Source of the DNA: a virus
Virus record (IMG/VR): IMGVR_UViG_3300045988_095709
Location: 1 to 64,000 of that record
Length of the DNA: 64,000 nucleotides
Strand: one strand, 5' to 3'
Part shown: one piece after another, positions 2,761-33,389 of the stretch
Layout of the letters: the number at the start of each line of letters is the position of its first letter
Position numbering within the stretch: position 1 is the stretch's first letter
Translations under genes and position numbers: made by a program
Notes under the pieces: model-generated
Told to the model about the DNA's origin: nothing
Databases searched by the model: none
What the model saw: the letters and a program-made list of their open reading frames with translations, nothing else

Positions 2761-3501
2761 TTAATCGTTTTTATAAATTTTATTCCAATAAGTTGTTAAT
2801 GTTCCATCTTCATTTCCAGTAGCAATAATAATATCGTTACCTCTAAGATGTGGGGCTCTGGCTTCTTTTATTGTACCATCACCACCTTTAAAGCTAATAT
2901 GTGTTTCGTTTCCCTTTCGATAAACAAATCCTACTGCATCTGCTTCTCCACAGATTATAGAACTTAATTTACCAACAAGATCTAACGCCATCTGGCTGAG
3001 CTCTTCTCCGTTTTGTTCTATTTGAACGTCTTTGACATGTCCTACCAATATGAATTCATCACATAAGCATCTGAACATATCAATTACTTTTCTAACAGCT
3101 TCACGAAGATACATATAACCACTTCCGTTGGGCAATGTACGTATATCATCACCGTCGTATTTTTTACCCATCGGTGTTTGTTTATACAGTGTTTTAGCGT
3201 AAGATAAACAAATCTCTTCTAGTCTAGTAGCATTGTCTATAGTAATGTGCTTATAGACATTATGTCCTACTTTTTCATTCTCAGCTCTAATGGCTTGAGC
3301 AATTTCTCCTAATTCTTTTATCGTTCTTGCTTGTACAGCCATCGCATCGATAAATTGTGATCCACCTTCCAAATCGATTATTAGATTGTTTTCTAACATC
3401 GATAATGCGTGAGTCTTTCCCGACTTAGGACGTCCGTATATAATCAAGAATTTTGGATTTACAGAAATTGCTGGAATTTTTTGTGTAGGTAATATTAACA
3501 T
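2761..3501 (-). CDS. RecA-fold P-loop ATPase (Sak4/AAA_24-like)
   Basis: 246 aa. Walker A YGRPKSGKT near the N-terminus and a hydrophobic-D Walker B (ITIDN). Confidence 0.5.
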   Translation of the reverse strand: MLILPTQKIPAISVNPKFLIIYGRPKSGKTHALSMLENNLIIDLEGGSQFIDAMAVQARTIKELGEIAQAIRAENEKVGHNVYKHITIDNATRLEEICLSYAKTLYKQTPMGKKYDGDDIRTLPNGSGYMYLREAVRKVIDMFRCLCDEFILVGHVKDVQIEQNGEELSQMALDLVGKLSSIICGEADAVGFVYRKGNETHISFKGGDGTIKEARAPHLRGNDIIIATGNEDGTLTTYWNKIYKND

Positions 3502-3953
3502 GTGTGTTTCTTTATGTAAATATAGATTTCCGTTATTTTATTTCGCTGTTCCTTACTGAGCTTATTGTACAAAGCTAATGTAAAGTTGTTAAGAGGAATG
3601 ATATCGTAACCAATCTGAATCTCATCCGAGAACAACTTAACTGGAGTTCCGTCAGAAAGTAAGAAATCATAATCATCTTCGATGATATTGTTCTTGTTGT
3701 TTAAGAACATATTTATATACTTCTTAAACGCACCAGAACGAATATTGATATCGAGCTTTTTATTTTTGGGTATAGTAATATCAATATTGATCTCTCGATT
3801 CTTCAAAGAATTTGTTGTATCATTCTCGAACAAATAAGGATTGTTCTTCTTTATATTGCTAAGTATAATGTCGTCAATAATCTTAGAACAGTTTGTATAC
3901 TCATTAAGTGTGTTGTTTGTACTTTTCGGAAATGTAAATGTATACTTTTTCAT
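3495..3953 (-). CDS. Hypothetical protein
   Basis: 152 aa ORF, tightly packed in the minus-strand operon. Confidence 0.6.
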   Translation of the reverse strand: MKKYTFTFPKSTNNTLNEYTNCSKIIDDIILSNIKKNNPYLFENDTTNSLKNREINIDITIPKNKKLDINIRSGAFKKYINMFLNNKNNIIEDDYDFLLSDGTPVKLFSDEIQIGYDIIPLNNFTLALYNKLSKEQRNKITEIYIYIKKHTC

Positions 3954-9429: not shown

Positions 9430-9498
9430 TGGTCCATAGGGGGATCGAACCCCTCTTCAGAGATAAAAATCTCCTATCCTACCTACTAAGAATGGACC
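9430..9498 (-). tRNA. Atypical tRNA-like gene (69 nt) with a non-7-nt anticodon loop
   Basis: Perfect acceptor GGTCCAT/ATGGACC and T-arm AGGGG-TTCGATC-CCCCT. The central arm GGAG(A)-TTTTTA-(T)CTCT gives a 6- or 8-nt loop. D-arm is weak. Confidence 0.45.
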
Positions 9499-16969: not shown

Positions 16970-16984
16970 AGTTATAAATTTATG

Positions 16985-17048
16985 TTGGTAAGTGAGGATT
17001 CGAACCCCACCTACCATTTGTACGTTTGGCGAATAGGTGTACTTACCT
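16985..17048 (-). ncRNA. Truncated tRNA-like element (about 64 nt)
   Basis: T-arm TGGGG-TTCGAAT-CCTCA. Acceptor AGGTAAG/CTTACCA has an A1-A72 mismatch. Only 32 nt lie between them. Confidence 0.3.
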
Positions 17049-17180
17049 ATTGACTAATTCTTACGCTACGCAAGAATAGTCGATGACATTTTTAGTGCCG
17101 TTTAAATTTTAAAAATGAATCTCGTACTTATTTCTTTGATGCAATCAAACGCCATTCATCCCCTTTGTATTTTGTTATTG

Positions 17181-17223
17181 TGGAGATGGAGGGAGTCGAA
17201 CCCTCGTCTTACATCAGAACATC
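17181..17223 (-). ncRNA. tRNA 3'-half-like element (T-arm plus 3' acceptor strand; no 5' partner found)
   Basis: GAGGG-TTCGACT-CCCTC followed by CATCTCC A. No GGAGATG within 550 nt upstream. A short GATG/CATC helix closes it. Confidence 0.3.
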
Positions 17224-17437
17224 GTACTAATAACGATTCTTTTTGTGGATATGTAGAATGGCCGGTTCTACATACCCTAAATACGTTATAACTTAATTTA
17301 TTTGCCATTTAATTCGTTTCTAATTTGTTAGTAATCTTAAAATGATTAGCTACTTCATTTTAAAATTTTAACGCGTCAGAATTAAATTAAACGGCAAATA
17401 TAAGCATAACGTTTGTGTAAGGTTTACGCATAGATTA

Positions 17438-29913: not shown

Positions 29914-30321
29914 ATGAGCAATGAATTAATAGTTGTTAAGCCGTTCAACTCTTTACAAAAAGGCGACACATTTATACTCAATAATGGAAAATATATTTGT
30001 TCTATTAAAGAGACTACAGATGGAACATGTGTAAAAGATAACATGGATTACGAGATGACTACTACAAATACTACAGTATTGTCAGTAGATACAGCTAAGT
30101 CATTGATCGAATCTGGTTATTTGAAGGACGAAACAGAAAAGGAGTCTGAAAAAACAGTATTTGATGAAATGGATGGTTTACTTTCTGCATATTACGATAG
30201 GATTGCAAACTTAGATGAGGAGTTTAAAGATGCTCCTACGTGCCTAAAGAATGAGGCAGAGGTTACCACTTTGAATCTAATAAAAGTTTTGAGACATCTT
30301 AAGACATTTAAAAATGCGTAA
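29914..30321 (+). CDS. Hypothetical protein
   Basis: ATG 29914 is preferred to the TTG at 29890. No TAG, TAA stop. Confidence 0.6.
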   Translation: MSNELIVVKPFNSLQKGDTFILNNGKYICSIKETTDGTCVKDNMDYEMTTTNTTVLSVDTAKSLIESGYLKDETEKESEKTVFDEMDGLLSAYYDRIANLDEEFKDAPTCLKNEAEVTTLNLIKVLRHLKTFKNA

Positions 30322-30326
30322 ATAGT

Positions 30327-30746
30327 ATGAACGAGGAGAAGATAAGTAGTAATCAGGATTTGGCTGAAAGCTTGCAGCCGGATATAAAGTTTGAATTTAG
30401 TAGATATTTTCTTGTAAAGCCGCTAGAGTTAGATAAGATAAAGAAAGAATTCGAAACACCGATCCCTTCTAAAGAACAAAAAGGAAAGGATGAAAACGGA
30501 ATAGAAGCTACAGATTATTCTGAAACTAAGAAAGAAATAAAGACTGTAGATTCAGATTGGAGAAAGGCAATAGTATTAAAAACTCCTTCTTCACATATAG
30601 CAAATAATACGAATGAAACTTCATTCTTGTCTGATATAAAAGTCGGAGACACTGTTGTTTATAGAAACAAGCACGCATTTCCTTTCGATCTGTATAGAGA
30701 TTCTGAATTAGTGTCAGGATTCGATATAGTAGCTGTAATGAAGTGA
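30327..30746 (+). CDS. Hypothetical protein
   Basis: 139 aa, no in-frame TAG. Confidence 0.6.
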   Translation: MNEEKISSNQDLAESLQPDIKFEFSRYFLVKPLELDKIKKEFETPIPSKEQKGKDENGIEATDYSETKKEIKTVDSDWRKAIVLKTPSSHIANNTNETSFLSDIKVGDTVVYRNKHAFPFDLYRDSELVSGFDIVAVMK

Positions 30747-30955
30747 AATTCGAAAGTATAGTAAAACAGGTCTCAGAAAATACGAAAATAGATTATGAAA
30801 CAGTATGTAACGTTCTAAAATTCCACTTTAAACATATAAAAAACATAATGCAAGACGAGGATGATATTAGAGATATACTGTTTAATAATTTATTTAAGTT
30901 CAAACTTAAAACACGTTATAAAAATAACAAACATTTAAATTATATTTCCAAATGA
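30743..30955 (+). CDS. Hypothetical protein
   Basis: 70 aa, GTGA start/stop overlap (GTG start at 30743). Confidence 0.5.
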   Translation: MKFESIVKQVSENTKIDYETVCNVLKFHFKHIKNIMQDEDDIRDILFNNLFKFKLKTRYKNNKHLNYISK

Positions 30956-31323
30956 ATAAGATTTATATAACAGACAGTTCACGTCCGATATTGGTAGATA
31001 GTGACGATAATATTAGATCTATAACATCTGACAGAGAAGCTATAAACAGAGTGATATTATTAGACGACGACTATGAAATCGTAAGTGGAGAATACAAAGA
31101 AGACAGAAGTTTTATAACAAAACGCCTGATCGGAAAGAAGGGACAAATCATGATTGTCTTTTACGAAGACTCATTTAAGCACAAGGTTATATTGGTAGAC
31201 AATAAAGACTGGGTTGAAAACATAACAGAATACAATAAGAAGCTAGAAAAAATTAAATCTAAATCCAATGATATTTCTGGAGAGTGCGATTGTGCTTGTG
31301 AAACAAAAAGTTGTGATTGTTAA
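30952..31323 (+). CDS. Hypothetical protein with Cys-rich C-terminus
   Basis: 123 aa ending ...CDCACETKSCDC. Confidence 0.6.
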   Translation: MNKIYITDSSRPILVDSDDNIRSITSDREAINRVILLDDDYEIVSGEYKEDRSFITKRLIGKKGQIMIVFYEDSFKHKVILVDNKDWVENITEYNKKLEKIKSKSNDISGECDCACETKSCDC

Positions 31324-31334
31324 ATTTTGAAAAT

Positions 31335-31655
31335 ATGAAAAAGAAGAAGAATACAAAGCCTGAGCTTATAATAAACATCGATGTAAATACTACTCCGTAC
31401 GATATATACATGGAGATAGCAAAGTATAAGTATGAGAGTGCTTTAAGCGATGTTGAACAACTATTAATGGAGAAGAACGCTATCGATAAGTATTTTGCTA
31501 AAGTAGACGAAATCGTTTCTAATATATATGCAAACATGCACAATGTATCTGTAGAAGACGAGGATACTGTTGTCTACGAAAAACAAACTGAGCATAAAAG
31601 CTGGGTTCGAAAAGTGTTCGATAAGATATTTAGAAGAAATAAATCCAAAGAATAA
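31335..31655 (+). CDS. Hypothetical protein
   Basis: ATG 31335 (MKKKKNTKPE...), TAA stop. Confidence 0.55.
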   Translation: MKKKKNTKPELIINIDVNTTPYDIYMEIAKYKYESALSDVEQLLMEKNAIDKYFAKVDEIVSNIYANMHNVSVEDEDTVVYEKQTEHKSWVRKVFDKIFRRNKSKE

Positions 31656-31719
31656 ATAAACACATAGGTACTTAGTACCTATACTGCCCTATGGTGTAAC
31701 GGCTAGCACAGGAGGCTCT

Positions 31720-32691
31720 TTGTTACAATTACTATTTAAAATGGAAAATAAAATATATTCTCTTTCGGACGATCAGTTCGTAGAATTAATAAAAACCAGC
31801 CAAAATATATCTGAAGTATTATTTAAATTAGGATACTCAATAAAAGGAAATTCTTGGGGTTTTTCTAAAATAAAAAAACGAATGGAAGATTTACATCTTA
31901 CTAATAATGATTTTAAAGGTAAGTCTATACTCAATACTAAGGTAGAAAAAGTAGATCCAAATAAATTATTTAGTGAGAATAGTAAACATAACAGGAACGT
32001 ATTAAGAAGATATATAATAAATAATAATCTGTTACCTTATAAATGCGCTATTTGTGGTATTACTAAATGGAACGATAAAACAATAAGTTTAGAATTAGAT
32101 CACATAAATGGTAAGAATAACGATAACAGATTAGAAAATTTAAGGTTTTTGTGTCCAAATTGCCATAGTCAAACTTCTACTTACGGATGTAGAAATAAAT
32201 CAATAAACGAATCTAAATACGATATTGATTTCGAAACCAAAATGTTAGTAGAAGACGCTTATGACAAATTGAAAAATATAAAAAAGGTGTCTAAGCAATT
32301 AGGAATAAGAAGGTGTGTTGTTACTAAAATAGTAAACGAATCTGGACAAAAAAAATCTAATCAAAAGTATGTAATAAGATATGACAAAGATCACAACGAA
32401 ATAAAAAGATACGGAAGTCTATCTGAAACAGCTAGAGATTTAATAAATAACAACGAGGTTAAAACTAAAAAAATAAAAACCTGTACAAGAACTTTAAATA
32501 AAAATAAAGATACGTTTTGGTGTAATAGTTATTGGAAAATCGAGGATGGTTGTGGGATAATAAATAATCCACAATTAGAATCTTCTCTAATTGACTCGGA
32601 AGTAAAACACGACGAGGCGCAAGCGAAAGCGGCGTGACAGACTAAACGAGAAGACCGATCTTAGGATTGGATGCAATAGTCGGTTCTTATG
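31720..32691 (+). mobile_element. Intervening sequence in the tRNA anticodon (group I intron-like) carrying a homing endonuclease ORF
   Basis: 972 nt lie between anticodon positions 35 and 36. The upstream exon ends in U and the insert ends in G, as group I splice sites require. The GC-rich 3' part (about 32560-32691) has a GAAA-capped helix and AGACTAAACGAG at 32639-32650, which I recall resembling the P7 region of bacterial tRNA introns. Confidence 0.55.
31741..32637 (+). CDS. HNH homing endonuclease (intron-encoded)
   Basis: 298 aa from ATG 31741. CxxC (YKCAICG) then ELDHINGKNNDNRLENLRFLCPNCH (H-N-H). The C-terminal half has IENR/NUMOD-like DNA-binding repeats (YVIRYDKDHNEIKRYGSLSETARDL). 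Confidence 0.75.
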   Translation: MENKIYSLSDDQFVELIKTSQNISEVLFKLGYSIKGNSWGFSKIKKRMEDLHLTNNDFKGKSILNTKVEKVDPNKLFSENSKHNRNVLRRYIINNNLLPYKCAICGITKWNDKTISLELDHINGKNNDNRLENLRFLCPNCHSQTSTYGCRNKSINESKYDIDFETKMLVEDAYDKLKNIKKVSKQLGIRRCVVTKIVNESGQKKSNQKYVIRYDKDHNEIKRYGSLSETARDLINNNEVKTKKIKTCTRTLNKNKDTFWCNSYWKIEDGCGIINNPQLESSLIDSEVKHDEAQAKAA

Positions 32692-32762
32692 AACCCTCTT
32701 AGTCTGGGTTCGAATCCTAGTGGGGTAACTAAATAGATAATAAATTAAAAATAAAATAATTT

Positions 32763-33245
32763 ATGGAAGTTAAGTTTAAGAAATTAGCAGAAAATGCTGT
32801 AATGCCTCAGAGGGCATATAAAGGAGATGCAGGTTTAGATCTTACCGCTACTCGTATTGATACTGAAGTTAATAACTGTGGACAATTGATCCTTGTTTAC
32901 CATACTGATCTTGCAGTAGAAATACCAGAAGGTTATGTAGGATTACTATTTCCTAGATCTAGCGTATACAAAACAGCACTATCTGCATCTAACGCGGTAG
33001 GAGTTATAGACTCTGGATATAGAGGCGAAATGACTATTAAGTTTAGAAATACTACAGATGTAATTCCTGCTGTATATAAAGTTGGAGATCGTTTCTGTCA
33101 GTTGGTAATAGTTAAGATTCCAGAAATCGAAGTTGTAGAAGCTGAGGAATTATCAGAATCGGAAAGAGAGACTAAGAGTTATGGATCTACTGGAAACGGA
33201 GAGATGGAAACTAAACAAGACAACAATACAGAATCTGCTAATTAA
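32763..33245 (+). CDS. dut: dUTP diphosphatase (trimeric dUTPase)
   Basis: 160 aa. Motifs GDAGLDL, PRSS, IDSGYRGE and C-terminal YGSTG. No in-frame TAG. Confidence 0.85.
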   Translation: MEVKFKKLAENAVMPQRAYKGDAGLDLTATRIDTEVNNCGQLILVYHTDLAVEIPEGYVGLLFPRSSVYKTALSASNAVGVIDSGYRGEMTIKFRNTTDVIPAVYKVGDRFCQLVIVKIPEIEVVEAEELSESERETKSYGSTGNGEMETKQDNNTESAN

Positions 33246-33260
33246 TACAGATTCTAATAT

Positions 33261-33332
33261 CGTGGGGTGGAGCAGAGGTAGCTTGCTAGGCTCATAACCT
33301 AGAGGTCGGGGGTTCGATTCCCTCCCCCATAA
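33261..33332 (+). tRNA. Initiator-like tRNA-fMet(CAU)
   Basis: CGTGGGGTGGAGCAGAGGTAGCTTGCTAGGCTCATAACCTAGAGGTCGGGGGTTCGATTCCCTCCCCCATAA. C1xA72 mismatch, A11-U24, loop CUCAUAA. Close to my recollection of E. coli tRNA-fMet. Confidence 0.8.
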
Positions 33333-33389
33333 CAATTTTACAAAGGAGTGAAATAAATATTATTTTAATAACCATTATTTTAACTTATA

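Follow-up and report, generated by a model that had tools for sequence, protein, structure and literature searches.

The DNA analyzed here (hereafter, the window) is a stretch of 64,000 nucleotides (nt), positions 1 to 64,000 of the IMG/VR virus record IMGVR_UViG_3300045988_095709. It is part of the genome of a gut phage, about a third of which lies outside the window. The nearest relatives in GenBank are Suoliviridae, belonging to the Delta group of crAss-like phages, whose hosts are bacteria, Bacteroidota (PMC7886860). The object of the analysis was a transfer RNA (tRNA) gene with the anticodon CUA, which is split within the anticodon loop by an insert carrying an open reading frame (ORF) for an HNH endonuclease and is followed by a long arm of genes that contain TAG codons in frame. 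The main features of the locus are as follows:

31685–31719, plus strand: tRNA(CUA) 5' exon, comprising the acceptor 5' strand, the D arm, the anticodon stem 5' strand, and loop nt 32–35 (CUCU)
31720–32691, plus strand: group I-type intron of 972 nt, defined by the junction, uninterrupted alleles, covariation, and a covariance-model match
31741–32637, plus strand: HNH endonuclease ORF of 298 amino acids, inside the P1 loop, with 0 in-frame TAG
32692–32728, plus strand: tRNA(CUA) 3' exon, comprising loop nt 36–38 (AAC), the anticodon stem 3' strand, the variable loop, the T arm, the acceptor 3' strand, and the discriminator A; CCA is not encoded
33627–64000, plus strand: TAG-recoded late arm, putatively served by the spliced tRNA, with 140 in-frame TAGs upon reading TAG as sense

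Split tRNA gene and its uninterrupted alleles

Neither ARAGORN nor Rfam found a tRNA at the native, unjoined locus. The two halves, TGCCCTATGGTGTAACGGCTAGCACAGGAGGCTCT at 31685–31719 and AACCCTCTTAGTCTGGGTTCGAATCCTAGTGGGGTAA at 32692–32728, both on the plus strand, join into a 72-nt tRNA(CUA), and for the halves joined in silico ARAGORN reported a 73-nt tRNA with the anticodon CTA and a normal cloverleaf. The spliced product has a 7-nt anticodon loop, U33, and, according to ARAGORN, the anticodon CUA, as in an amber-suppressor tRNA. Among the 8 possible junctions that give a 7-nt loop, only CTCT|AAC combines an exon-final U with an insert-final G. It is also the sole junction that matches an existing uninterrupted gene: the joined 27-mer GCACAGGAGGCTCT|AACCCTCTTAGTC (that is, GCACAGGAGGCTCTAACCCTCTTAGTC) was found without mismatches in 91 IMG/VR contigs, mostly crAss-like genomes of about 100 kb. 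In contig L031, the bases equivalent to 31719 and 32692 of the window are contiguous (8203|8202 in L031), with the same dUTPase gene downstream. The 91 intronless contigs and L031 constitute a precise presence/absence polymorphism at the insertion site. Junctions yielding Ser, Lys, or Leu anticodons matched no uninterrupted allele and lacked the exon-final U and intron-final G. The intron mode of ARAGORN placed the intron arbitrarily and reported "Ser cga."

The tRNA covariance model of Rfam was applied by proxy, to uninterrupted alleles one nucleotide away from the spliced product rather than to the spliced sequence itself; they scored 49.4 and 51.5 bits (threshold 29). A U1-A72 pair is present in the spliced tRNA. 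Since RefSeq labels the syntenic, near-identical uninterrupted CUA tRNA of crAssphage cr124_1 (NC_055899) as tRNA-Gln, the suppressor is probably of the Gln type and would be charged with glutamine. Reassignment of TAG to Gln has been inferred for crAss-like phages (PMC7886860). The preliminary description of this DNA, made from the letters alone, had proposed a tRNA(CUA) divided into these two halves with a clean cloverleaf, the CUCU|AAC junction, and a Gln-like identity. The first two proposals held, the third is probable, and the uninterrupted allele to be looked for in related phages is provided by the 91 contigs, L031, and cr124_1.

Structure of the intron and its endonuclease gene

The last ~150 nt of the insert contain a compact core, P2–P8, that clearly belongs to a large family of homologous phage RNAs. 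Members of this family were gathered with the motif GGCGCAAG..GCGTGA..GACT and aligned (99-sequence alignment A1). The structural elements of the intron, from the 5' splice site to the terminal nucleotide, are as follows:

31717–31722, plus strand: P1 5' strand, exon UCU and intron UUG, with U31719 being the 5' splice-site U paired with G32544 (minimum free energy structure of the ORF-deleted mini-intron)
31726–31734, plus strand: 5' strand of the helix closing the ORF loop (P1 extension), pairing with 32526–32534 (duplex comparison)
32526–32534, plus strand: 3' strand of the helix closing the ORF loop (duplex comparison)
32541–32546, plus strand: internal guide sequence CGA-GGA (P1 3' strand)
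32549–32575, plus strand: P2 hairpin GTTGTGG / CCACAAT, with 99.3% of cells paired and compensatory changes in 6 of 7 pairs (21 sequences)
32581–32587, plus strand: P3 5' strand, pairing with 32648–32654, compensatory changes in 7 of 7 pairs
32595–32616, plus strand: P4 (CTCG/CGAG) around a minimal P5 (32602–32604 / 32608–32610), by covariation analysis
32617–32635, plus strand: P6 (GCGC/GCGT), invariant, and a covarying P6a hairpin with a GAAA tetraloop
32638–32644, plus strand: P7 5' strand C-A(bulge)-GACTA, by covariation analysis
32648–32654, plus strand: P3 3' strand GAGAAGA, by covariation analysis
32655–32670, plus strand: P8 hairpin CCGATC TTAG GATTGG, compensatory changes in 4 of 4 pairs
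32677–32682, plus strand: P7 3' strand TAGTCG, by covariation analysis
32691, plus strand: terminal G of the intron (omega-G)

The helices written on A1 were P3 of 7 base pairs (bp), P4 of 4 bp, P5 of 5 bp, P6 with P6a, P7 of 6 bp with a bulge, and P8 of 4 bp. Over the 99 sequences and 32 pairs, 96.8% of cells were paired, compared to 38–45% when the partners were slid, and 21 of the 32 pairs showed compensatory changes. The covariation score was 0.487 versus 0.172 for shuffled alignments, and the observed value was not reached in any of 500 shuffles. The strands follow the order P3-P4-P5-P5'-P4'-P6-P6'-P7-P3'-P8-P8'-P7'. Because the 5' strand of P7 lies inside P3 and its 3' strand outside, the core forms the P3/P7 pseudoknot of group I introns. 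Within P7, the pair G32640-C32681 does not vary among the 99 sequences and lies next to the bulged A32639, and the flanking pair (alignment columns 95 and 184) covaries between AU, CG, GC, and UA; G32640-C32681 is presumed to be the guanosine-binding pair. The covariance model R1, built from A1, gave a single match in the window, at 32575–32683, with a score of 101.6 bits. The classical R and S elements are represented in the window by ACAGACTA and AATAGTCGG. In the consensus of the wider family (GAACGACTAAG, GCGATAGTCTG), they coincide with the elements of the T4 td intron, AACGACTA and ATAGTCTG.

The wider RNA family behaves as true introns of essential genes, since L183, a member lacking an ORF, divides the gene of a major head protein in frame, with an exon-final U and an intron-final G. 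When the exons of L183 were joined after GCU| and after AACAG|, the protein gave a single continuous match to PHROG 1357 that spans the junction (1.2e-22). Another viral contig, L104, carries two copies of a related core (3123–3238 and 3656–3767), about 530 nt apart, suggesting two introns in one gene or in neighboring genes.

At the 5' splice site, the unconstrained minimum free energy structure of the ORF-deleted RNA recovered P1, consisting of UCU paired with GGA and UU(G) paired with (C)GA, with a U-G pair at the splice site. The guide GGA is conserved in the family, and GGATG was present in all tRNA-family matches of a search that did not demand it. The third extension pair of P1 is not kept in contig L266. 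Covariation of P1 is impossible because the exon is invariant. A duplex comparable to the ORF-closing helix was found in all 27 distinct members, and its sequences are unrelated between subfamilies.

The ORF is placed in a peripheral loop, between the P1 5' strand and the guide sequence, and is closed by this conserved helix. Its last 90 nt overlap P2–P6 of the core, and the stop codon occupies 32635–32637. The product matched Pfam family PF01844 (6e-5; 23.5 bits versus a cut-off of 21.4) and PHROG 10822 (3.5e-41), in agreement with the HNH nuclease predicted earlier. The DNA-binding repeats of that prediction were not confirmed, since accessory DNA-binding modules (NUMOD or helix-turn-helix) had no Pfam match at E ≤ 10. 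A PDB sequence search with the protein returned nothing meaningful.

Distribution of the intron and genomic context

The family-specific motif was found at 44 IMG/VR loci, in 2 GenBank records, on 5 contigs binned into metagenome-assembled genomes (MAGs), and on 1 metagenome contig. About 45 crAss-like contigs have the same intron, and in each it separates anticodon positions 35 and 36 of a tRNA(CUA). In all 40 members with both junctions resolved, the intron is 972–1003 nt long, lies at CUCU|AA(C/A/G) of the CUA anticodon, and carries an intact TAG-free ORF of 270–304 amino acids. The anticodon stems of all 40 are complementary (4–5 of 5 positions, G-U allowed) despite widely differing sequences, for example, GGAGG/CCTCT, GTGGG/CCCAC, CCGGG/CCCGG, GAAGA/TCTTT, and TCGGT/ACCGA. 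ARAGORN called tRNA(cta) for 30 of the 40 spliced products. Intron-bearing CUA tRNAs with non-canonical T loops (GTGGG-GGCAGCA-CCTAC or GTGGG-ATCGACA-CCTAC, for example, versus TTCGAAT) occur in L111, L158, L215, L219, L222, L223, L228, L229, L232, L240, and L243, and were mostly missed by ARAGORN even when spliced in silico. In L127, L139, L163, and L242, about 25 nt downstream of the split suppressor, ARAGORN reported a tRNA whose anticodon loop has 8 nt and contains a four-base "anticodon," TAAA.

In many related crAss-like phages, the same suppressor is uninterrupted at the same locus. No intronless allele of the same species was found in IMG/VR. The closest relative found, the sole metagenome match L266 (~93% identical to the window), is also intron-bearing and has the same arrangement. 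Comparison of intron and flank identities gave no clear signal of recent horizontal transfer. Scanning of the genome collection yielded 17 matches, of which 5 are real copies on MAG-binned contigs, and the other 12 were rejected as chance matches lacking the core. The five contigs (L249, L256, L262, L263, and L264) are filed in GTDB within Coprovivens, Bacteroidaceae, Lachnospiraceae, Eubacterium, and Muribaculaceae MAGs and are most likely phage contigs binned into bacterial genomes.

Reading TAG as sense increased the total ORF length in the window from 12,148 to 19,640 codons. In-frame TAGs are absent from the minus arm and from the plus-strand genes at 29914–33245, which include the intron ORF and the dUTPase; the statement of the preliminary description that about 140 TAGs follow the tRNA and none occur in the five genes upstream of it on its arm was reproduced, with the count of 140 starting from 33627. 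No second CUA tRNA was detected by ARAGORN or Rfam in the 64-kb window, and the complete genome of a relative, PV686213, contains no CUA tRNA gene other than the split one. The earlier suggestion of an only amber decoder therefore stands for the window and for PV686213 and is not established for the whole genome. As was also anticipated, splicing before function follows from the combination of a split tRNA and a group I-type intron: the need for splicing to obtain a working tRNA is a well-supported inference, and TAG decoding would then depend on ribozyme activity.

The split tRNA is unannotated in the GenBank record PV686213 (L244/L245). This record is annotated with the standard code, the late arm is broken into short hypothetical ORFs, and the HNH gene is called "hypothetical." The late ORFs of PV686213 are shorter than those of the window even with TAG as sense.

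Other RNA genes were noted in the window. A tRNA-Met(CAU) just downstream of the suppressor (33261–33333, plus strand) has a C1-A72 mismatch atop the acceptor stem, a hallmark of bacterial initiator tRNA, and therefore the phage seems to encode its own tRNA-fMet beside the suppressor. At 16970–17270 (minus strand), ARAGORN predicted a permuted transfer-messenger RNA (tmRNA) with the tag peptide GTKNVIDYSCVA*, and the Rfam tmRNA_permuted model scored 47.6 bits (threshold 47). ARAGORN showed no counterpart in PV686213; the element is possibly a tmRNA of the phage, possibly a borderline false positive. A weak tRNA-like gene at 9430–9498 (minus strand; Rfam tRNA 29.6 bits, threshold 29) has good acceptor and T arms and a 6-nt U-rich anticodon loop (UUUUUA); it was not called by ARAGORN and is no CUA decoder.

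Proposed mechanism, alternatives, and known systems

Taken together, it is very likely that a mobile group I-type intron with an HNH gene in its P1 loop split the amber-suppressor tRNA gene between anticodon positions 35 and 36, that the spliced tRNA decodes the TAGs of the late arm, and that the intron is kept by homing and not by the needs of the phage. Catalysis and homing are predictions of this scheme, as is charging with Gln. Transcription would give a precursor of about 1 kb, in which the 5' exon end UCU would pair with the guide GGA, with U-G at the splice site, and the compact core P2–P8 would fold. Guanosine would then attack after U31719, and the freed exon would attack after G32691, ligating CUCU to AAC. 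The resulting mature tRNA would decode the 140 in-frame TAGs. The endonuclease would drive the intron into intronless copies of the tRNA gene in co-infecting phages, the suppressor gene being a highly conserved homing target presumably common to co-infecting recoded phages. Since the ORF is intact in every member and the uninterrupted tRNA is common at the same locus, a selfish homing intron is indicated, and the strictly conserved insertion site fits it as well.

Several observations weigh against this interpretation. The exon contributes just 3 base pairs to P1, and the window sequence does not allow a P10, which in most relatives could form between UU or GUU beside GGA and exon AA or AAC. 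The ORF-closing duplex of the window itself is weak (z = −1.4). The Rfam model Intron_gpI (RF00028) had no match at its gathering score in the window and none at E ≤ 10 in 31600–32800 or 32530–32735. It was likewise unmatched in the ORF-less relative L183 and in 14 related loci. As a control, the T4 td and nrdB introns were weakly recognized by this model, scoring 40 and 36 bits (threshold 50), so the negative result is real for the subgroup to which the window belongs. Conversely, R1 gave no match to the T4 td, T4 nrdB, or Bastille introns, and therefore a direct model-level tie to an experimentally self-splicing intron is missing. The structured GC-rich 3' end that had been noticed in the insert is a ribozyme core by covariation, while the Rfam check proposed for it was negative; the intron represents a subgroup outside the curated Rfam model, and its assignment to group I is based on topology, covariation, and splice-site rules.

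Finally, A replaces the nearly universal terminal G in about 10 of the 40 introns, which is unexpected for working group I introns. These omega-A introns end in ...GGTTTAAYA|AAC, the nearest G lying more than 7 nt from the junction, and are found in L092 (PV686213 65192–66242), L105, L203, L217, L218, L220, L221, L231, and L238, and, independently, in L225. They differ at near-invariant bases of the joining segment J3/4 (TAAATATCTCGG versus TAATTGACTCGG). Their HNH ORFs and their exons are nevertheless intact, and in PV686213 no CUA tRNA exists besides the split one. Such introns are either splice-defective or have an unusual second step.

The preliminary description had also suggested that the intron adds a regulatory layer. 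The intron would then be an adaptive gate or timer, with regulated splicing delaying the switch to TAG as sense and hence structural and lysis expression, and with HNH translation competing with ribozyme folding as one route. In a variant of this idea, the start codon would be sequestered by the P1-extension helix, the folding rate of the ribozyme would set TAG readability and the onset of late and lysis genes, and omega-A variants would mature by a non-canonical second step. The split tRNA does head the recoded arm, the preceding genes are TAG-free, and the intron ORF never has TAG. Because the ORF runs through P2–P6 and the start codon lies within the ORF-closing helix in several members, translation and ribozyme folding should exclude each other, and interference of translation with folding is plausible. 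However, phage group I introns commonly show such overlaps and sequestered start codons. The intron appears dispensable for the life cycle, since many related TAG-recoded crAss-like phages carry an uninterrupted tRNA at the same position, and an intact HNH ORF in all copies at a strictly conserved site points to a selfish homing element. A designed gate is therefore not indicated; we regard it as improbable, and the variant with a sequestered start codon as equally so.

It is still less probable that the tRNA gene was simply broken by a mobile element and is an unspliced pseudogene, with TAG being read by a tRNA encoded outside the window or by the host. The missing terminal G and the altered near-invariant J3/4 positions in about a quarter of the members, the negative Rfam group I search, the failure of ARAGORN to recognize 10 of 40 spliced products, and the location of about a third of the genome outside the window would all agree with a pseudogene. 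On the other hand, both exons are intact, the stems remain complementary across ~1 kb in 40 of 40 members with many different sequences, and the ribozyme core is under strong structural selection. Neither the complete genome PV686213 nor the window has another CUA tRNA, and the arrangement is retained in L266. Removal of the insert by archaeal bulge-helix-bulge protein splicing, as a group II intron, or through joining of split halves by RNA ligase is hardly credible: omega-A variants could not easily perform the group I second step, and, speculatively, a ligase could in principle seal a 3'-OH/5'-phosphate nick in the anticodon loop, but the junctions have no bulge-helix-bulge motif, the site is 35/36 and not the canonical 37/38, the core has the topology of group I and not group II domains, and a tRNA splicing endonuclease is not known from bacteria.

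An intron-split suppressor bears on the search for such genes. A TAG suppressor tRNA has been detected in only about 40% of genomes in which TAG is recoded, and undetected tRNAs have been suspected (bioRxiv 10.1101/2021.08.26.457843; PMC7886860; PMC10136315). The literature searched contained no mention of an intron in a suppressor tRNA. Since standard finders miss the split gene, as seen with ARAGORN, Rfam, and the annotation of PV686213, the intron-split suppressors in about 45 viral contigs could account, in a concrete and checkable way, for some of the "missing" ones. They can be found by a simple search with the motif GGATGNNNNNNGGATAATNNATAATC or with the model R1. Moreover, the code switch would be mechanically dependent on ribozyme activity, and intron-bearing and intronless alleles provide an experimental handle on the mode and timing of the onset of recoding.

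Among known systems, the closest precedent is the tRNA-fMet intron of Synechocystis PCC 6803 with I-Ssp6803I, a group I intron in a tRNA anticodon loop with a homing endonuclease (PMC1995217). According to Bonocora & Shub 2001, as cited in PMC1995217, I-Ssp6803I targets the anticodon region of the intronless tRNA gene. This intron differs in being located on a bacterial chromosome, in its length of 655 nt, and in encoding a 150-amino-acid PD-(D/E)XK enzyme, not HNH (PMC1995217, Table 1); it interrupts an ordinary initiator tRNA and not a stop-codon suppressor, the comparison with the window being by description and not by sequence. Group I introns occur in four different bacterial tRNA genes (PMC1995217). 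The ORF-less bacterial tRNA introns (cyanobacterial and plastid tRNA-Leu(UAA), Azoarcus tRNA-Ile, and Agrobacterium tRNA-Arg) likewise lie in the anticodon loop, but they are cellular and about 200–250 nt long, whereas the intron of the window is 972 nt long, has an ORF in its P1 loop, is phage-borne, and lies at 35/36. These introns are small and self-splicing and, as reportedly described by Zaug et al. in 1993, have a very short P1 and P10 and depend on the exon-exon anticodon stem. The R and S elements of the window are nearer the phage T4 td type than the presumed elements of Azoarcus.

The near-identical tRNA-Gln of crAssphage cr124_1 (NC_055899) also lies just upstream of a dUTPase gene and has the same presumed TAG-to-Gln role, while the intron is absent. 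Group I introns are known in the major capsid protein (MCP), PolB, and primase genes of Delta-group crAss-like phages (PMC7886860) and, more generally, in protein genes of the Delta and Zeta groups (PMC7886860; PMC10136315; bioRxiv 10.1101/2021.08.26.457843). The wider RNA family of the window core similarly includes members in phage capsid genes. In its ORF-less members, the P7'-P9 region shares 87.5% identity with the Bastille DNA polymerase intron over 40 nt; the T4 and Bastille introns have P7.1/P7.2-type insertions and are not matched by R1. The combination of a phage group I ribozyme with an HNH endonuclease is shared with SPO1 I-HmuI, Bastille I-BasI, and T4 nrdB I-TevIII. The introns of SPO1, Bastille, and T4 interrupt protein-coding genes, whereas the host gene in the window is a tRNA; the literature searched contained no earlier phage tRNA gene carrying a group I intron.

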